Shown here: piece after piece, positions 19,147 to 63,248 of the stretch
Layout of the letters: the number at the start of each line of letters is the position of its first letter
How positions within the stretch are numbered: the first letter of the stretch is position 1
Origin: Enterococcus phage 9181
Sequence record: MT939240.1
Length of the DNA stretch: 64,000 bases
Reading direction: 5' to 3' (one strand)
Notes under the pieces: generated by a model
The model's input: the letters and a program-made list of their open reading frames with translations, nothing else
Told to the model about the DNA's origin: nothing
The model's database searches: none
Made by a program: the position numbers and the translations under genes

Positions 19147-19658
19147 TGACAAGATATGCTTTTCATATAGGTGACAAGGTTATGCACAGGGTTCATACAG
19201 GAAAGCCTTACTTATTAATGGAGATAGCAGAAGAGATTGACACTAATGATCCACACGAGAGAGTTAGTATAAAGTATTTGACAATGCCCGATAAGATTGT
19301 TTACCTAGAAGTAGCAGATTTAGTGCTTGCTACTGAAAAAGAAGACGGTAGTTACGAAGCTGTTAAAGTAGAACCAGTTGACGAAAGTATTTTTGAGTCT
19401 ATGCCAACAGAAGACTGTTACAAGGTGCCAGTACCTCGTGAAATGGCTCGTTTCTTAGATCAATACAAAGCTCTGGATATTGACTCATTAGACACCATCA
19501 TTGACGCTTGGTTAGAAAGTCCTTATTGGGATGAGTATATGGAAAGCAAGGCTAGTGACCACTTGCGTTGGGACTACTTGTTGGTAGATGCCGTTCGCAA
19601 AGGATATACGATCTCAAAAGTATTTGATAAAGATTATATGGAGGAGTATTATCTATGA
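19143..19658 (+). CDS. hypothetical protein
   Basis: ATGA overlap; 171 aa. Confidence 0.4.
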   Translation: MMTRYAFHIGDKVMHRVHTGKPYLLMEIAEEIDTNDPHERVSIKYLTMPDKIVYLEVADLVLATEKEDGSYEAVKVEPVDESIFESMPTEDCYKVPVPREMARFLDQYKALDIDSLDTIIDAWLESPYWDEYMESKASDHLRWDYLLVDAVRKGYTISKVFDKDYMEEYYL

Positions 19659-20104
19659 GAGAACCTATTTTCAGAGTGTATGTGAACAAGGTGGGGTATT
19701 TAGCCCCTCCCCAATTCCTCATTACACCACGTGGGGACGTTTTGCTCAACAATGGGGACGACACTTGGTCATACCCTCCGCAAGACCTTGCCTACGTACT
19801 TGAACGAAGACTTAGTACAACCAGTGTAAACGGCTCCGAGGTTATCTTTGAAGGAGACCTCGTTAAACTTATTCCTGAGACTTTTGATAGTGTTGAACCA
19901 ACCTTTGGATATGCTGCCATACGAGACGGTAAGGAAGGTATTGTACTTGAGGGAGACATAGACTTTATCGGACTCCATGACAACGGCGCTGATCGCAAGC
20001 TAGAGAAGCTTGGTAAGAATACTACGTGGGGCGAGCCTTACGATATTGAAAAGATTATTAAAGACTTTTATGAAAGAGAGGGTATAGATACCGTTGGGAA
20101 TTAA
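19655..20104 (+). CDS. hypothetical protein
   Basis: ATGA overlap; 149 aa. Confidence 0.4.
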   Translation: MREPIFRVYVNKVGYLAPPQFLITPRGDVLLNNGDDTWSYPPQDLAYVLERRLSTTSVNGSEVIFEGDLVKLIPETFDSVEPTFGYAAIRDGKEGIVLEGDIDFIGLHDNGADRKLEKLGKNTTWGEPYDIEKIIKDFYEREGIDTVGN

Positions 20105-20235
20105 CTTGAAGGACTTTATCAAAGCGGACAACATTAAGCTTAGTCGAGAAGAAGTCAAAGAGTTTTTGCAAAGCTTTCTTGACATTAAGGAAGGCGAAGA
20201 ATGGGCACAGGTAGAGGACTTTCCCTAAATACTTT

Positions 20236-20697
20236 GTGAGCACCTTTGGCAGAGTGCTTTCCTTGAAGACTAGCAATGTTAAATTTATTGGCACGAAGCC
20301 TAATCATACGTTTGGGTATACGGGTATTACACTAATTAGTGCTAATAGTAAAAGGAGAACCACCTTGCACAGAATCGTGGCAGAAACTTTTATCCCAAAG
20401 CCACCAGAGTGGAGAGAAGATTGGCATGTAAATCACATCTCAGGAGACCCTACTAATAATTCAGTTACCAACTTAGAGTGGTGCACTGCAAGTGAAAATT
20501 ATTTACATCCTAACTGTAACCGTAAACGCTCTAAAAAAGTTCGTCGGATAAGCATTGAAGACGGATCGACAGAAATTTTTCTCAATGCCTCTGTAGCGGC
20601 TAGATCAGTTGGTGGTAGGGCTTCAGAGGTTTGGCGAAAGTGTAATAAAGCCTCTAAAAAATTAGATTATATGAATTATTTTTGGGAGTGGGCTTAG
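20236..20697 (+). CDS. HNH homing endonuclease
   Basis: HRIVAETF...WHVNHISGDPTNNSVTNLEWCT HNH motif. Confidence 0.65.
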   Translation: MSTFGRVLSLKTSNVKFIGTKPNHTFGYTGITLISANSKRRTTLHRIVAETFIPKPPEWREDWHVNHISGDPTNNSVTNLEWCTASENYLHPNCNRKRSKKVRRISIEDGSTEIFLNASVAARSVGGRASEVWRKCNKASKKLDYMNYFWEWA

Positions 20698-20754
20698 CGC
20701 CTGCTCCTATTAGCGTTTGCGAAAGATTTTTCTATCTCTTAAATTTCTCGATTA

Positions 20755-20832
20755 TTTTCCTAACCTTCAAGTTTTTAAAAAATTTTCCTAACCTTCAAGT
20801 TTTTAAAAAATTTTCCTAACCTTCAAATTTTC
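20755..20832. repeat. tandem direct repeat, 2.7 copies of the 28 bp unit TTTTCCTAACCTTCAAGTTTTTAAAAAA (iteron-like)
   Basis: Exact 28-bp units at 20755-20782 and 20783-20810, then a degenerate third copy. Confidence 0.85.
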
Positions 20833-21182
20833 GTTTTATTTTTTTTTGACTTTCAAAAATCAAGAAATTTTTTCCTCTTAAGCTAAATTTTATACTTTTT
20901 TTCAATATACTATTTGAAATTCGTGTCATATACGAGCATTCTGGCGCCTTTTCAAAAGTCTTCCCGACCAATTACCCACTTAAAAACCTCAGGCAACGCC
21001 TCTGCCACACCTCGATCCACCACCTTGACCAAAAATGTTACGAATACACGCATCAAAAAGCGTTTAGTTAGTTTGAACGTAACAACTTTATGATCCTTTC
21101 AATAAAAGATATTTAATAAGCATACAGCAAAGCATATTCAGGAGCATATGAAATGCTGATTATGAGCATATGGAAACATGTT

Positions 21183-21317
21183 CCCCAGATTTTTGAAGAA
21201 CTTCACTTAAAATATAACAAAAACATCCCCAGAATTTTGCATACACTCCCCCAGATTTTAAAAGAAAATCACATAAAACATAGTAGTGGTGTGTGCGTGT
21301 GTGCCCCCAGATTTTTT
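21183..21317. repeat. four dispersed copies of a CCCC(C)AGA(A/T)TTTT motif, with a (GT)n tract at 21286-21303
   Basis: Copies at 21183, 21227, 21248 and 21304; the last two extend to about 30 bp of similarity (ccccagatttt..aaaa..cacataaaac). Confidence 0.8.
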
Positions 21318-21697
21318 AAAAAACACACATAAAACGTAATGAAAAACACTTACTTGAAAAGCTATCAAAATAACACTTTTTAAGTCAAAATTAAAGGAAA
21401 AAAATGCCCCTTTCCAGATCAATAAAATAACGAACTTCCTACCGAAAACATTAAAACCTTTAAAAGCGCCCTATTTTGCACACGTAAAAAAGCCTTGAAA
21501 GCCTTGATGTTATTGGGTTTGTGGCTGTTTTTAGTGTCCAATTTGTAAAAGTTTCTACTATTAAAAGCCACAAAAAAGAACGCCAAAAAACTTTTTAGGG
21601 AAAATAAGAGAAAACTCTTGTATTTATTTTCGATATGTATATAATAAAGAGTGTAGAGAACAACAAAACAAAAATAACAGCAAAAAGGGGGTTTTGG

Positions 21698-21784
21698 TAT
21701 GTTTGGCTTTTGGGTATCTATGTTAGTGATGTCTTTGCTAGTTTGTGGCTTTGTCGAGTGGTTAGGCAACGGCGAAAAGAAATA
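21698..21784 (+). CDS. tiny hydrophobic peptide (about 28 aa, MFGFWVSMLVMSLLVCGFVEWLGNGEKK)
   Basis: ATG at 21698 after AAAAGGGGG; a single TM helix. Confidence 0.3.
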
Positions 21785-21928
21785 ACAGAAAGTTGAAAAA
21801 AGTGTTTGACAACCTCGAAAATGTTTGATACACTTAATGAGTATTAAAAAGTAACATCTATTCGGACGAGCTTCAAAATGTTTCACTTATTCTAACTGTT
21901 TCAAAAATACACTTAAGGAGGTTTGCAC

Positions 21929-22036
21929 GTGTTTAATTATCGGAATGAAAAGCAACAAAAAGAGCGTGACTTTTTTACACGTTGGTTCATCATTCTAGGG
22001 GCTTTCATAGGAATTGCGTTGGCTTGGTTCATGTAA
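21929..22036 (+). CDS. tiny hydrophobic peptide (about 35 aa)
   Basis: GTG at 21929 after AAGGAGGT; C-terminal TM helix FIILGAFIGIALAWF. Confidence 0.35.
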   Translation: MFNYRNEKQQKERDFFTRWFIILGAFIGIALAWFM

Positions 22037-22091
22037 AAAGATTTTAAAAAGGACTTGCGAAGCAAGCGCCAAAATGCTATCATGAAAAAGT

Positions 22092-22141
22092 AGTCAAAAG
22101 GTTATAAAAAACTAACTTATAAAAAGGGGTTTTCAAAAATG
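22092..22141 (+). repeat. conserved leader repeat copy A (AGTCAAAAGGTTATAAAAAACTAACTTATAAAAAGGGGTTTTCAAAAATG)
   Basis: About 45 bp, nearly identical to 24774-24821 and, for the 3' 30 bp, to 22532-22564. Confidence 0.85.
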
Positions 22142-22546
22142 AAAATTATTAAAACAGTAGAAAAACTTATTGAACGTGCAGAAAGAAAAGGCGTCGCAAC
22201 TTTAAATAGAAAAGTAAATCAAGGTTACGGCGTTTATTACACTAGTGAAGTTTATCGAGTGGAAAAAGAGGGCAATATTTTCACGCTTTACCACTACGAA
22301 ACAAAAACATGCCAGATTGACACAGCAACAGAGGAAATTTTGTATGTTTATGGTGAAAGCGTAAGCGATGCGGATAGCATTTTTACTTTTTTACATTATT
22401 TCGATATCGTGCTATCGTTTGGCTATAAACCAGTAAACGGTGGGTTTTATGCCAGCGTTAACGGTAAACAAATATTTATAGATGACTTTGACCGATTGGA
22501 AAACTTCACCAAAGCAATTAAAAAAGAAATTAAAACTAACTTATAA
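22139..22546 (+). CDS. hypothetical protein
   Basis: Follows leader repeat A; 135 aa. Confidence 0.5.
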   Translation: MKIIKTVEKLIERAERKGVATLNRKVNQGYGVYYTSEVYRVEKEGNIFTLYHYETKTCQIDTATEEILYVYGESVSDADSIFTFLHYFDIVLSFGYKPVNGGFYASVNGKQIFIDDFDRLENFTKAIKKEIKTNL

Positions 22547-22564
22547 AAAGGAGTTTTCAAAATG
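22532..22564 (+). repeat. conserved leader repeat copy B
   Basis: AAAACTAACTTATAAAAAGGAGTTTTCAAAATG, overlapping the stop of the upstream gene. Confidence 0.85.
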
Positions 22565-23029
22565 AAAAAACTAACAAAAAACGAACAACATCAAAATGCA
22601 ATCGAAGAGGCAACTCAAAGACTTATCAAAAAAGTGAATGATGTTATTAATAGTCTTTCACAAGATGAAAAATTCTATACACTTTTAAATCTATCTCAGC
22701 AAGTTAACTCTTATGATTGTTCACTTGACACCTGTATCGAACCGATTTCATTTATTGATGACTATCTTGCAGAAATGCCTTTTCTGGAAGCATTACAAAA
22801 AATAGACATGGATAATTTTGACCCATTAGATGATTATCTAATCATGACTATCTATGGTATTGAATCGGCGGACGAGGCAAAAGCCTTAGAAGCTCTCGAA
22901 TTAATACAAGATGAAATAGTAGAGGGAACTATTTTAAATTGGGAACATATTTATTATTATGATATCAATGAAAATATAGTTAACCTCATCAACAAATTTT
23001 ATGAACTACTTGAAAGCAAAGAGGGGTAA
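22562..23029 (+). CDS. acidic hypothetical protein
   Basis: 155 aa; N-terminus MKKLT shared with 24819 at the nucleotide level. Confidence 0.5.
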   Translation: MKKLTKNEQHQNAIEEATQRLIKKVNDVINSLSQDEKFYTLLNLSQQVNSYDCSLDTCIEPISFIDDYLAEMPFLEALQKIDMDNFDPLDDYLIMTIYGIESADEAKALEALELIQDEIVEGTILNWEHIYYYDINENIVNLINKFYELLESKEG

Positions 23030-23032
23030 AAT

Positions 23033-23314
23033 TTGGCAACTAACTTCGAATTCATTCATAAGCAACTAGAGAGAAGCTTCCATCCCATCAATGACTTAAA
23101 ACGCTCGCAAGTTTTAATGCGACAAGAAACAAAAAACCTACTAACACAGATCAAGAAAGGGGCTTCCGTCAAAGATTTGGCGGAACCTTTGGAAAAAATG
23201 GTAAAAGACTTTGACCAACTAGCCTCGGACGTTCTTTCCGTGGAATGTTATGTTAGGTCAATAAAAAACCCCATTCAGGAATCACTAGGAAGGAGGGTCA
23301 ACAGTCATGACTAG
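23033..23314 (+). CDS. hypothetical protein
   Basis: 93 aa. Confidence 0.4.
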   Translation: MATNFEFIHKQLERSFHPINDLKRSQVLMRQETKNLLTQIKKGASVKDLAEPLEKMVKDFDQLASDVLSVECYVRSIKNPIQESLGRRVNSHD

Positions 23315-23612
23315 CCTATTAATTGGGGCGCTTGCTTTGGTTGGTTCGTTTACAGTCTATTATTACGCTTTCAAGGTTATATCAAACTTTTTAGACTGGA
23401 TGAATGATTTTAAGTATAAAATAGAAAGGCAATCACAAAAGACAAGGGATAAAATAGCCGTAAAAAAATTCCTTAAGGAAGAAAAAGAAAGAGAGTTACA
23501 AGAGGCAATCTTACGAATGAAAGCCGAAAAACTTAAAAAAGAGAAAATGTTAAGCGACCTAGCTAACGACTTAGAAAACGACGACACAAAAGAAGAGTAC
23601 AAAACTTTTTAA
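23307..23612 (+). CDS. hypothetical protein (N-terminal TM helix plus charged coiled coil)
   Basis: 101 aa. Confidence 0.4.
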   Translation: MTSLLIGALALVGSFTVYYYAFKVISNFLDWMNDFKYKIERQSQKTRDKIAVKKFLKEEKERELQEAILRMKAEKLKKEKMLSDLANDLENDDTKEEYKTF

Positions 23613-23633
23613 TTAAAAAGGAGACTGGAAAAC

Positions 23634-23972
23634 ATGGAAAACAAAAAAGAGTTATTCATAAATAAAGGAGAAAAAAGGACTCAAGTAACTGACGGAAAAA
23701 ATGCCGTATCATTCGAGCGTGTAAATAACGACATTTATGGAAATCCCCTCTACAGGGTGTATCCCGTAACTTATTCATTCAGAAGATTGAAAAGCGTATA
23801 CAGAAATTATGAGAGTAAAGGTTACTACCTTGTTCAATCCTATAACATTCTGGCAGATTGTGCCCGTATTATTGACGAGGTTAACAACCTTGTAACGCTT
23901 CCCGAAAATTGGCGAACTGATTTCGATTACTATAAGGCGCTCGGATACACAAAAACAACGGCATTTATATAA
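23634..23972 (+). CDS. hypothetical protein
   Basis: AAGGAGA RBS; 112 aa. Confidence 0.45.
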   Translation: MENKKELFINKGEKRTQVTDGKNAVSFERVNNDIYGNPLYRVYPVTYSFRRLKSVYRNYESKGYYLVQSYNILADCARIIDEVNNLVTLPENWRTDFDYYKALGYTKTTAFI

Positions 23973-24013
23973 AACGGATAAGAAAAGTTGAAAAATAAAT
24001 TAAAAGGTGGAAA

Positions 24014-24295
24014 ATGAAAATGAAAATGAAAAATAGAGAGTATGAAAAAATTAAAGAATCGTTGGCTGCTTTTGGTGTAGAAAAGATAATAGCATATAAG
24101 ATGCAACTCGAGGAGCTATTTGCTTCAGGTGAAAGCAACATAAAAAACGTAGAGACCCGCTTGATTTTTGAAGTGTATTATGCTTGTGTACCTAAGGAAT
24201 TGCGTAAGGATATTATGGACAATAACGATTATAACGACGCGCATATTAAAACAGCAGTAAAAAAAGCTTTGAAAGAGTTGGGGATTTTAAAATGA
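24014..24295 (+). CDS. hypothetical protein
   Basis: AAAGGTGGA RBS; 93 aa. Confidence 0.4.
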   Translation: MKMKMKNREYEKIKESLAAFGVEKIIAYKMQLEELFASGESNIKNVETRLIFEVYYACVPKELRKDIMDNNDYNDAHIKTAVKKALKELGILK

Positions 24296-24382
24296 ACGTG
24301 AAAGAGTAGGCTACACGAGAACAGGCAAAGGAAAACGGGCACGACCGCCGAAAACAAAACAATCAAAAAGGGGATAATTATC

Positions 24383-24538
24383 ATGCTAAACTTATTCATA
24401 TTTTTATCACTTGTCAAAGGTGCATTCATTCTATTCGCAATCATTTCTGTAATTGCCGTTATTGGAATTTTTGCAATGTCTCAAAAAGCACTAGAAACAA
24501 AAATCAAAGAATTAAAACAATCAGGAGGCAAGTGGTAA
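24383..24538 (+). CDS. tiny membrane peptide (51 aa)
   Basis: ATG after AAAGGGGA; TM helix FILFAIISVIAVIGIFA; ends 24538 and is followed immediately by another small ORF starting at 24540. Confidence 0.35.
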   Translation: MLNLFIFLSLVKGAFILFAIISVIAVIGIFAMSQKALETKIKELKQSGGKW

Positions 24539-24773
24539 AATGAAAAAAGCAAACATTCAAACAAAACTCGAAAAACTTTGGTTAACTTATGTAATACAGC
24601 CCGAAAAGGTTCGTAACGAGCTATCTTTTACGGATTGGGTTTGTGTCGATAAGGATTGGCTAGTGGAAGAAAGAGAAAGACAAGCGAGCGTCAAGGCAAC
24701 CAACTAAAAAAAACTAGAGAGGTTGGCAAGTTATACTTGTAAGCCTCTTTTTAATATGCTAATATAAAGGAGT

Positions 24774-24821
24774 AGTCAAAGAGCTATAAAAACTAACTTA
24801 TAAAAAGGGGTTTTCAAAATG
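24774..24821 (+). repeat. conserved leader repeat copy C
   Basis: AGTCAAAGAGCTATAAAAACTAACTTATAAAAAGGGGTTTTCAAAATG. Confidence 0.85.
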
Positions 24822-25268
24822 AAAAAACTAACAACGCTAATCATTATTACACTGGGAACGGTTCTGGCAACCTTTGCCACACCTCAAGAAACAAAGGCGG
24901 ACACACTAAACGAATACACGGGAACGGCGTTCGCAAAAACTTTTAAAGTTGAAATGAATAAAAAAGAATACTTGCTAGCGATTGGGCAATCTGATTTTTA
25001 TAGCTTCATACCTATGGAAAAAGCGAAGGAATTGGATATAAAAGAAGGACATATCTATAATATGTATTTTATGCGTGATAGTTATGAAGTATTTGCGATA
25101 GTTGACTATTCGGCGCCTCAATTTAAAGAGGGTAAAGACATCAAAGCACTACTTAACAACAATAAGAATTTCACGAAAGAGAATATCAAAGCAACAATCA
25201 AGGCGGAAGAAGATAACGCTATTCAGTGGGACTTAGGTATTACAATGGACAAGATAGCAAGCTTATAA
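24819..25268 (+). CDS. secreted protein with Sec signal peptide
   Basis: MKKLTTLIIITLGTVLATFATPQETKA|DT signal peptide; 149 aa; follows leader repeat C. Confidence 0.5.
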   Translation: MKKLTTLIIITLGTVLATFATPQETKADTLNEYTGTAFAKTFKVEMNKKEYLLAIGQSDFYSFIPMEKAKELDIKEGHIYNMYFMRDSYEVFAIVDYSAPQFKEGKDIKALLNNNKNFTKENIKATIKAEEDNAIQWDLGITMDKIASL

Positions 25269-25289: not shown

Positions 25290-25318
25290 GAGGGGCGTTT
25301 GATACGCCTCTTTTTTAT
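25290..25318 (+). terminator. intrinsic terminator (gaggcg-tttgatac-gcctc plus T6)
   Basis: Read directly from the sequence. Confidence 0.6.
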
Positions 25319-26539
25319 GCCCTTAAATACTACTAACTAACGAAGCATATGAGAACATTAAGCGACCAACGGACAAGCGACGGAATAAACAGGCGCTTAT
25401 AATGCTCGTGTGTGCAATGATCTAATAAGGATACGGGAAGGCGTGTGTACTCCTTTAATAAGAGGCGTTTAAAATCCTTATAATATAGTTATGGGATAAG
25501 CTTGTGGGTTATGTAATGGATACACCTTTGACACACCCCCCCACTGATTGGCTGCCAGCAAGAAGCCCCTCACGGTAACCCTATATAATACTATATTAAA
25601 AGCCTCGCAGAACGTACGAGAAGCCTCTCTAATGTAATAGGTAAGTATATCATAATACTATTAAAAAGGTGGCAAAGTGTCTCTTTTGTAATAGTTAAAG
25701 GTAGCCCCATTTATTAGGCGTTAAGATAATCATCTGGCAATCATTTTCGGGAGGGGGCTATTTTATGCACGGGGCTTTTTGTGGTGGGCATTAGATTGGT
25801 GGGGCATAGCTTTGTCGGGGGCTTCTTATTGTGGTGGTTAAATAGTTTGCAAAGGTTTGGCTTTCCTTTGACGATACTGTTGTGATCCTTTTGAAATGGT
25901 AGTGGACTACGGACTCACACACCTAAAACACAATAGGGGTCGGGAGGTGTGGCAAAGGATCGGACACCCTACTAATCTCCCTACCATATTAATGGGATAA
26001 TCGAGGCATGACCACGCCACACACAACGCCCCATTCATGCCCTCTATAGTAAGGTGTATATGATGGGCTTCTCTTAGTTTACATAATGTACATTATACAA
26101 AGTAGTTTAATATATTAAGATAGCCTTGCCACGGCATGCATAGGGTAGCACCACACCACCACACACACGACCACGACAAGGCATGACCATCACTTCATAA
26201 TAACAACAGCACACACACCGCCCGTCACACCACCACACACCACGAGCCACGCACACAGGTGAATGACCATAGCATAACAGAACGGCAGGCACCCCGAAGG
26301 GAGGGGGTAACTTAAAATTTTTGACGCGAGCCCGTGGACACTCAGTCTCTTGGAAATTTCGGATTTTCCCAAAAGGGGTCGTCAATTTTATTTTTTCTGG
26401 ATTTCCTAAAGGGGCTCCGAAGCCTTTGCAATACCCTTACACACGAGGCGTTCACACAAGCTTTACACCTGATCCCACACTAGGCTTCACACACAAGTAA
26501 TACACACACGGAGTGAAGAAAAGGTTACACATGAGCAAT

Positions 26540-26653
26540 GCTAAACGCCGCTCTTATTATCATTCTGATGATACTTTCTAAGTGATCTTGTTGCCAACCA
26601 TCTTCCGATAAACGCCCCAATAGTTACCCACACCACTATCGTAAATACTCTCA
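26540..26653 (-). CDS. tiny hydrophobic peptide (37 aa)
   Basis: GTG start after ATAGGAGGAG on the minus strand; sequence RVFTIVVWVTIGAFIGRWL. Confidence 0.3.
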
Positions 26654-26843
26654 CAGCAAACTCCTCCTATATAAATCTAATAGCTTCTTTTACAGGCTCT
26701 GCGAACGGCAAGAACCTTGGGTCAATGTCTTCAATTTCCTTCTTAGTTAACTGGTAACCAGACTTACACCAGTAGCGTAGCTCTTCACTAGGAACCATCT
26801 TATAGTCATTTCGATCAGTGTTTACTTTAACGAGATACTGTCC

Positions 26844-62706: not shown

Positions 62707-63248
62707 TGAGAAAGTTTAGTGATGGAGAAGTTGAAATAATTGCGCTTGAGTGGTTGCTAAAAACATATAGGGAAAGAGGTGTGCCAGAGGATATATTAGT
62801 AGGCAACTTGGAGGAGGTCTCAAACCTCTTCCTTGCTGATCCTGAACCAGTAGTTCCTAATGCTAGTGAGAGGCTTGGATTAATTGAAGATATGATACTG
62901 GCAGAGGGAACGGCGATGCAAAAGGACGTTTTAAAACAGATGCAAGAGCTGAATGCAAAGACTAAGGAAATGGAGGCTCTCCACAATGAGTGGAAGAGTA
63001 CTATTGATGAACAACTATCCTTACAAAATGAATATCAAAATCTTGCTAACGTTATAGTCAGAGGTGTTGTCAGAAACATTGTGGAAGGGAACATAGCCGT
63101 GTGGGTAGAAGACGTTGGCTACAATGACCAGAACGGTTTTTTCACAGTGAGAGAGGCGAACTTAAATGATATTGACGCCGAGGAGTTCTGGTGTGGGTAT
63201 ATCCAATCTCTGATTGCAGACGTTGAAACAGGTATTTCCCACCAATAG
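62685..63248 (+). CDS. hypothetical protein (tail accessory or lysis-associated)
   Basis: Overlaps the Tal stop by 22 nt; 187 aa. Confidence 0.4.
   Translation: MGRRCFLMRKFSDGEVEIIALEWLLKTYRERGVPEDILVGNLEEVSNLFLADPEPVVPNASERLGLIEDMILAEGTAMQKDVLKQMQELNAKTKEMEALHNEWKSTIDEQLSLQNEYQNLANVIVRGVVRNIVEGNIAVWVEDVGYNDQNGFFTVREANLNDIDAEEFWCGYIQSLIADVETGISHQ

Follow-up and report, generated by a model that had tools for sequence, protein, structure and literature searches.

In the genome of Enterococcus phage 9181 (sequence record MT939240.1), an obligately lytic siphophage of E. faecium Com12 (phage 9181 paper), nearly identical sequences of about 50 nucleotides (nt) precede three unrelated small genes, and this raises the question of what the repeat does and how it came to stand in front of such different genes. 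The stretch analysed here, called the window, is 64,000 nt long and is read on one strand, 5' to 3'. The repeats lie in a cluster of small genes on the + strand (about 21.6-25.3 kb; products of 28-155 amino acids (aa)), which is flanked by two long stretches devoid of open reading frames (ORFs). We consider it likely that the repeat forms the transcribed leader in an expression module that is used more than once, heads two fixed slots (A and C) and is at the same time a patch of homology for cargo exchange. This explanation starts from what is observed of the anatomy of the module, of its conservation in all relatives, of alternative cargo states and of chimeric signatures; promoter use, the start of the transcript, early timing, a stabilising role and the recombination events are what we infer from the sequence.

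Three copies of the module, termed A, B and C, are present in the window (Table 1), where the original prediction had placed them. A 29-mer of the module, with up to three mismatches allowed, matches 22112-22140, 22536-22564 and 24793-24821, compared with an expectation of 0 from 100 shuffles. When the 64 kb are searched with a profile made from four full copies, copy C (E=7.5e-16), copy A (E=1e-14) and copy B (E=3.8e-6) are the sole sites, and the fourth-ranking site reaches only E=0.8. Copies A and C are identical at 48 of 53 aligned positions, the differences being three substitutions and two 1-nt indels, and B is 91% identical to C across 57 nt. As to their extent, the full copies begin slightly earlier than had been described, at AGTAGTC (22089 and 24771), in each case 6 nt past a -10 box, and copy B is incomplete: it lacks a promoter and the first ~20 nt, and corresponds to the 3' two-thirds of the module. 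Each copy was also said to supply the ribosome-binding site, the start codon and the first codons of the gene behind it. A strong Shine-Dalgarno (SD) sequence and a start codon are found in all three, but the first five codons, ATGAAAAAACTAACAA (MKKLT), are common only to B and C, and copy A has only ATGAAAA in common with them. Copy B does contain the stop codon of the upstream gene (TAA, 22544-22546), together with the last eight codons of this gene (KKEIKTNL). The products of the three downstream genes are indeed mutually unrelated (best blastp E=0.08; PHROGs different or none), and the other genes of the cluster carry different leaders.

Table 1. Positions of the modules, their signals and their genes in the window
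Feature	Position	Strand	Description
Promoter P_A	22055..22083	+	Predicted; -35 TTGCGA, 17-nt spacer, TG-extended -10 TATCAT; scan score 9/12 + TG
Module copy A, full	22089..22141	+	Hairpin 22090-22095/22100-22105; core AAACTAACTTATAAAAAGGGG 22109-22129; ATG 22139
Gene A, 135 aa	22139..22546	+	phrog_3276, E=8e-28
Module copy B, partial, promoterless	22510..22577	+	CAAAGCAATTAAAAAAGAAATTAAAACTAACTTATAAAAAGGAGTTTTCAAAATGAAAAAACTAACAA; left end approximate, secure part 22521-22577; SD of gene B and ATG 22562
Gene B, 155 aa	22562..23029	+	Weak phrog_4534 match; identical (100%) to phi9181_ORF057
Right-hand boundary of slot A	23018..23050	+	Ribosome site and TTG start of gene D, AAAGAGGGGTAAAATTTGGCAACTAACTT
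Intrinsic terminator closing the P_A operon	24716..24755	+	Stem 24716-24750 and T-run; predicted free energy (dG) -16.9 kcal/mol
Promoter P_C	24737..24765	+	Read from the sequence; -35 TTGTAA, 17-nt spacer, TG-extended -10 TAATAT
Module copy C, full	24771..24821	+	Hairpin 24772-24776/24783-24787; core 24790-24809; ATG 24819
Gene C, 149 aa	24819..25268	+	N-terminal Sec signal peptide MKKLTTLIIITLGTVLATFATPQETKA, cleavage before D; constant slot-C cargo
Intrinsic terminator after gene C	25290..25312	+	Found by scan; dG -13.6, z=-2.6

A full module consists, from its predicted 5' end, of a small hairpin (GUAGUC/GGCUAU type), an A-rich unstructured stretch that contains the invariant core AAACTAACTTAT, the SD sequence AAAAAGGGG, a variable spacer of 8-9 nt and the ATG. 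This SD, AAAGGGG, can presumably pair at seven positions with the 3' end of 16S rRNA. Because copies A and C begin 6 nt after the -10 box, the repeat is a 5' untranslated region (5'UTR) with SD and start codon, not a promoter. The suggestion that the repeat itself is a promoter thus fails: it is a leader transcribed from just downstream of two predicted host-type promoters that are only partly similar, with the -35 and the extended -10 alike and the spacers different, and neither the promoter scan nor reading of the sequence reveals a promoter upstream of copy B. The distance from the -10 box to AGTAGTC is free of indels in 23 aligned copies. The P_A element CTTGCAAAGCAAGCGCCAAAATGCTAATAT is kept ahead of slot A in all relatives, and in the P_C region 24747-24758 is 97% conserved among them. 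The -35 of P_C sits inside the 3' arm of the terminator stem at 24716-24750, which is itself conserved in relatives and more stable than expected (z=-3.7; 1 of 200 shuffles is equally stable). From this layout, two transcription units are predicted, one from P_A through genes A, B, D and those following to 24707, and the other from P_C, with gene C as its only gene.

A structured RNA regulatory element, which had also been proposed, was not found. Rfam yields no match overlapping the module over the surrounding 6-kb region at E values up to 1, the sole hit being DUF805b (23515-23543, E=0.69), and no match at gathering score over the whole window; the module in all its copies folds no better than shuffled sequences (z -0.6 to -1.4). 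Likewise, the window contains no antisense copy of the module and no complementary sequence from which a complementary small RNA might arise. The small hairpin at the 5' end is a separate matter. It begins 6-7 nt past the -10 box in 23/23 copies, and its positions are 96.9% paired across 22 distinct copies, compared with 25-62% when the partners are slid. The variants include GTAGTC/GACTAT, GTATTC/GAATAT (a double compensatory change), GTAGC/GCTAC and GTAGT/ACTAC, and the predicted dG in relatives is -3.6 to -6.3 kcal/mol.

The arrangement in related phages tells slots from cargo. Among 50,697 phage records searched with blastn, the module occurs at full length only in four E. hirae phages (EH phages), ~70-kb genomes that are the closest deposited ones (about 87% identity), and it lies at two places in each. 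Relatives were collected by scans with the core sequence and by look-ups of gene B homologues, which gave 11 distinct genomes with both slots (the window, EH802P2, L007, L016, L018-L023 and L026); L009 covers slot A only, and the remaining records are near-duplicates. Scans of metagenomes and genomes with the core added two true relatives, L007 and L009, and seven other loci which are chance matches to ribosome sites or unrelated sequence. A wider spread was also sought by an exact-core scan of IMG/VR and was rejected, as the scan gave just two matches, both by chance and in terminator contexts. Full modules stand at slots A and C in 11/11 distinct genomes, with two or three copies each, and thus the repeat is not single-copy in relatives; both full copies are kept at the same two slots in every relative, at an overall identity of 82-92%.

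The cargo of slot C is identical in kind throughout, a 149-aa secreted protein. When the genes behind the repeat are checked in relatives, as the original prediction had advised, slot A is found to hold gene A, gene B, both, or a remnant. In L007 it contains gene A alone; in L016-L019, L021 and L023-L029 it contains gene B alone, which follows P_A and a complete module directly. In the window, L009, L020 and L022, gene A is followed by a partial module and gene B, with an identical junction each time, and in the EH phages a 17-codon in-frame remnant of gene A is left. The cargo of slot A in relatives, whichever gene it is, has the tail ..EVEKFGN*, since it is encoded where gene D, the next in line, has its ribosome site and TTG start; gene A of L007 is accordingly 137 aa long and ends in ..KEVEKFGN*, and in the window the tail of gene A comes from copy B. 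Slot A is therefore bounded by two conserved sequences, and its contents are exchangeable. The tandem state is also found with alleles of genes A and B that are 82-84% identical to those of the window, and must therefore be old. The 848-bp gap of the EH phages was considered as a loss of both genes from an ancestor resembling the window, which is ruled out by L007; comparison with L007 identifies it as an in-frame deletion inside gene A of a genome without gene B. The notion of a portable expression cassette therefore stands in so far as the module heads unrelated genes and the cargo varies across relatives, but the slots are fixed and only the 3' half of the module travels, an arrangement of fixed slots with exchangeable cargo more than a freely portable cassette.

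That the 3' half travels is read from chimeric modules. The form TATAAAAGG, with four A's, occurs in gene-B-linked modules only (6/10, against 0/6 of the A-linked and 0/11 of the C-linked ones), and it does so in partial modules (L020 and L022) as well as in full modules of B-only genomes (L018, L019, L021 and L026). Gene-A-linked modules have TATAAAAAGG, with five A's, in 6/6 cases, and gene-C-linked modules have five to seven A's in 11/11. The 3' halves of the full module of L018 and the partial module of L022 are identical, the variant start MTSKNEQ included. Therefore the 3' half travels with the cargo, the promoter and the 5' half stay with the slot, and the crossovers are to be placed in the invariant core AAACTAACTTATAAAA(A)GG, so that the crossover zone would be narrowed to about 20 bases of the 5'UTR. 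In addition, three variants of the spacer between SD and ATG, TTTTCAAA, AAAACAAAA and TATCACAAA, are distributed over the slots differently between genomes. The 5' flank of copy B, AAAAAAGAAATTAAAA, matches an insert of the slot-C modules in EH802P2 and L016, and the native 3' end of gene A, AAGCTATTAAA, is similar to GGGCTATAAAAA of the module, a short homology for the event that formed the tandem. Identity between the A and C paralogues is 0.78, compared with 0.81 and 0.83 for the orthologues and 0.90-0.94 for the core. The proposal that the repeat is a recombination site is borne out in part: the chimeric modules need crossovers inside the module, but the junctions of the 848-bp and 495-bp indels lie outside its core.

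The following scheme is proposed on these grounds. At slot A, the host RNA polymerase would initiate at P_A, about 6-7 nt past the -10 box, and transcribe the leader and genes A, B and D on to the terminator at 24716-24750. At slot C, the promoter embedded in this terminator would restart transcription into gene C through a second leader, which is 90% identical to the first. The leader consists of the 5'UTR, the strong SD AAAAAGGGG and the start codon, to which two of the copies add the first five codons; it would probably serve for high translation initiation, and the hairpin at the 5' end and tight ribosome binding may possibly give the mRNA some protection. Lacking a promoter, copy B is a relic that serves ribosome binding rather than a full cassette. 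It would be what remained of a module between genes A and B after the two alternative slot-A cargos had come together in tandem, and today it would provide the ribosome site of gene B and the last codons of gene A. Since the module is nearly identical wherever it is present, it is a patch of homology, and through crossovers in the core AAACTAACTTATAAAA(A)GG the gene that follows the promoter could be gained, lost or exchanged. If copies A and B recombined in this way, gene A would be lost and the result would be precisely the arrangement seen in the B-only genomes.

Several results weigh against this scheme. The 4-A counts come from related genomes and are not independent events, and a permutation test for homogenisation or gene conversion of copies A and C within genomes is negative (P=0.3-0.7). 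Two indels, of 848 bp relative to the EH phages and of 495 bp relative to L007, were joined at microhomologies outside the core (GAAA; ATTAAA/AAAGAGG), and two or three module copies per genome are few for a shuffling system. Conservation of the leader is about equal to that of the adjacent coding sequence, not higher. P_C scores 8/12 + TG, below the threshold of 9, and is not listed by the promoter scan. The covariation of the hairpin is thin, with one double compensatory change and 14 one-sided ones, and 19-28 of 500 shuffles reach the observed values; its predicted dG in the window is 0 in copy A (unstable) and -2.6 in copy C (marginal). A stabilising 5' hairpin is thus a plausible extra, though a weakly supported one. 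The microhomology junctions (the EH deletion and L007 versus the window), the small number of copies and the lack of concerted evolution within genomes also speak for a different reading, namely that the copies are neutral leftovers of duplication or illegitimate recombination which carry an ordinary ribosome-binding site, the cargo differences having come from random microhomology indels. We hold this to be improbable, because both full copies are retained at the same slots with an invariant spacing between promoter and leader in every relative, and because cargo-linked 3' halves sit behind slot-resident 5' halves. Moreover, the B-only genomes join gene B to a complete module in register, an outcome which random deletion would rarely produce but an A/B crossover would.

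The core itself invites another interpretation, as a specific operator, i.e., an mRNA or DNA site for a phage or host regulator, with its repetition serving coordinate control; a translational repressor of early messages (like T4 RegA), an endoribonuclease or a small RNA might be what acts on it. In its favour, the core AAACTAACTTAT..AAAAGG shows little or no variation across 23 full copies, although the adjoining spacer before the ATG varies freely, paralogues are as alike as orthologues, and a related core, CTAACTAAAATA..AAAGGGG, lies ahead of other accessory genes in relatives. Nevertheless it is unlikely, as neither a candidate regulator nor a complementary sequence elsewhere in the window was found, the core has no Rfam family, conserved structure or palindrome, and its conservation is not above that of the adjoining coding sequence. 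In the genome, the 8-mer AACTAACT is not enriched as a boundary motif (8 vs 5.1), nor is ACTAAC (44 vs 46), and a long A-rich unstructured leader with a strong SD suffices for the observed constraint. A dedicated recognition sequence of 19-21 nt, AAACTAACTTATAAAAAGG, through which a phage-encoded RNA- or DNA-binding factor co-regulates the genes or directs recombination, has little probability in our judgement; if true, it would mean a purpose-built plug-in system for accessory genes in Gram-positive siphophages, made of fixed promoter slots and of cargo bearing a matching 3' half-module. It is very improbable that the module marks the end or the target of a mobile element, such as a miniature transposon, the recognition site of a homing endonuclease or an attachment site of the integron type that a dedicated recombinase moves. 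An HNH endonuclease gene does lie 1.4 kb upstream (20236-20697), and the blocks of cargo with a partial module act like cassettes, but the module has no terminal inverted repeats or target-site duplications, no integrase or transposase is present among the ten ORFs of 19655-25268 (the stretch that was scanned), the HNH gene comes and goes independently of the cargo state, and the copies are directly oriented at fixed positions. Finally, a generic AT-rich SD context or a chance match, which was named at the outset as the result that would undo the prediction, is refuted. Ruminococcus and other contigs from unrelated genomes do contain the exact 18- to 21-nt core, at what are ordinary ribosome sites or terminators; nevertheless, the window has three sites where 0 are expected, with profile E values down to 1e-16, the likeness spans ~50 nt, of which 20 nt lie upstream of any SD, it recurs at two slots in all relatives, and other genes of the same cluster have different leaders.

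The explanation as a reused leader with exchangeable cargo can be compared with known systems. In T4-type phages, PeSLs (promoter-early stem-loop cassettes), repeated units of a sigma-70-like early promoter and a terminator stem-loop, flank genes of unknown function (Arbiol et al., 2010, PMC2839356; Comeau et al., 2014, PMC4122927), and recombination of these units with one another is held responsible for the genes inserted, deleted or replaced when close relatives are compared (PMC2839356; PMC4122927). In both cases, short repeated regulatory units stand before small genes of unknown function in a variable region. Slot C is predicted to be a composite of terminator and promoter, as in a PeSL, and the differences between relatives at slot A map to the repeats, as judged from the alternative cargo, the in-register B-only modules and the 3' half that goes with the cargo. 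On the other hand, the phage 9181 module is not homologous to PeSLs in sequence and lacks their typical GGGG...CCCC stem. No significant stem-loop is present at slot A, where a hairpin at P_A (22054-22066) was evaluated as a PeSL-like stem-loop and proved insignificant (dG -6.2, z=-0.08). The conserved recombining part in phage 9181 is the leader with the ribosome site and the adjoining first codons; the module occurs three times in 64 kb (two or three times per genome), against dozens of copies in PeSL phages; and phage 9181 is a siphovirus of a Gram-positive host. Formation of excised mini-circles is a trait of PeSL-type cassettes. By analogy, the module would work like a PeSL without being a member of the PeSL family.

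The host-takeover genes of SPO1 (genes 37-60) are small, are expressed early and possess both strong promoters and strong ribosome sites (Stewart et al., 1998, as far as reported in PMC6873191). In the SPO1-like Enterococcus phage Porthos, one near-identical promoter-leader unit of ~75 nt precedes 9 of the 17 small genes of the early region. Phage 9181 resembles these phages in its cluster of small genes and in the host-type promoters and strong ribosome sites predicted there, and gene A is a member of the protein family that includes their terminal-repeat-encoded early proteins. The leaders are non-homologous, however, and the Porthos repeat spans the whole promoter, whereas the phage 9181 copies are most alike in the leader and have unlike promoter spacers; furthermore, phage 9181 is a 72-kb siphovirus. 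The early genes of SPO1-like phages are located in a long terminal repeat. To our knowledge, cargo exchange at such units has not been described for SPO1-like phages. Mosaic phage genomes have conserved boundary or linker sequences at gene borders, such as the boundary sequences of lambdoid phages, which give homology for gene exchange, and the theory of modular evolution is reportedly due to Susskind and Botstein. Slot A fits this description, with the module as its left border and the conserved gene D start region as its right one; it differs in that its left linker is duplicated within the genome and carries expression signals. The 5' stabilisers of Firmicutes mRNAs combine a 5'-terminal stem-loop with ribosome binding, as summarised for the B. 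subtilis aprE leader (Hambraeus, 2002, via PMC3997798), and the same source refers to a polypurine stabiliser of phage SP82 (Hue, 1995) and to protection of hbs mRNA from RNase J1 by ribosomes (via PMC3997798). The leader of phage 9181 is similar in having a predicted hairpin 0-1 nt from the predicted 5' end and then a very strong SD, but this hairpin has just 5-6 pairs with G-U wobbles, and that of copy A is predicted to be unstable.

The sequence family is new, while the kind of arrangement is already known from the PeSLs of T4-type phages and from modular phage evolution, and no new kind of biology is opened. The locus is a small-scale example, in a Gram-positive siphophage, of expression slots that are fixed and accessory genes that are exchanged behind them. 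For annotation, it explains the leader-derived end of gene A, the five common first codons of unrelated genes and the EVEKFGN tail that comes from the start of the next gene. Therapeutic use of phage 9181 against multidrug-resistant E. faecium is under study. Its two slots offer natural sites of what is probably strong and early expression, so that insertion of payload genes could be tried there. The direct repeats predict spontaneous deletions of 424, 2257 and 2682 bp during phage production.

Two further initiation regions resemble the module. The leader at 21640-21701, ahead of a membrane-peptide ORF of 28 codons (ATG at 21699), may be a diverged third full paralogue. It has a promoter-like site upstream and 53 nt from the -10 box to the ATG, equal to module C, and it is weakly but significantly module-like by shuffling (P=0.001 against C and 0.009 against A), the likeness residing in the AAAG..GTAG start, AAAA(C)TAAC and AAAAAGGGGGTTTT. 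In relatives, a second slot-resident initiation region, AACTAACTAAAATA..AAAGGGGTAAAAATACC followed by ATG, lies directly after the stop codon of a 55-aa gene, the homologue of 24540-24707 in the window, and has a CTAACT...AAAGGGG core in common with the module. It is found at 7520-7552 in L001, 6262-6296 in L016 and 7825-7859 in L019, and before a 206-aa gene in L021-L023 and L026; it heads a 75-aa gene in some relatives and the 206-aa gene in others, and the window has neither gene.

As for the genes behind the modules, tblastn with gene A finds 220 phage records, mostly of Staphylococcus and Enterococcus myophages, several of which are annotated as 'terminal repeat-encoded protein'; its kin are the early 'terminal repeat-encoded' proteins that SPO1-like phages of Enterococcus and Staphylococcus possess. 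Neither gene B nor gene C matches these proteins. For gene B, tblastn against deposited phage genomes gives no homologue, and homologues were obtained only through a large protein collection. Gene C matches no Pfam or PHROG family. It is conserved in every relative and has its own predicted promoter, and a secreted protein from a stand-alone, probably early unit is unusual in a lytic phage. Farther down the cluster, the gene at 24015-24336 is 88% identical at the DNA level to a sequence of Porthos (Schiekvirus, Herelleviridae; L006, 3521-3843), where it adjoins the gene A homologue, and the EH phages have two different genes instead; this likeness suggests a fairly recent exchange of early accessory genes between a siphophage and large enterococcal myophages. 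A 15-mer, CCTTTGCCACACCTC, is found with up to two mismatches at five sites, where 0.03 are expected: 20999-21013, 24871-24885 and 25525-25539 on the + strand, and 25944-25958 and 62776-62790 on the - strand. One copy falls where gene C encodes its signal peptide, in the stretch with the highest conservation of the region (0.97-0.98), and a perfect inverted copy lies 1 kb downstream of it in non-coding DNA. Of the relatives, only L007 lacks the gene C copy, and the inverted copy occurs in L007, L018 and L019. The 15-mer could be a protein-binding site, or could allow a 15-bp RNA-RNA pairing between the gene C mRNA and a transcript of the non-coding region.

The ORF-less stretches on both sides of the cluster contain repeats of their own. 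Upstream, 20700-21600 comprises 0.9 kb without credible ORFs, with three tandem units of 28 bp ending in TTTTCCTAACCTTCAA at 20715-20826 and four CCCCAGATTTT... units at 21183-21345; both sets are conserved in EH802P2, and they look like iterons or a replication or packaging signal. Downstream, 25300-26800 (~1.5 kb) has no convincing ORF, no tRNA and no Rfam match, is 82-88% conserved among relatives and includes GT/CA-rich runs. The sequence CACACCACCACACACCAC at 26226-26243 in this stretch is an inverted match to 21286-21303, and this inverted pair brackets the entire small-gene cluster.

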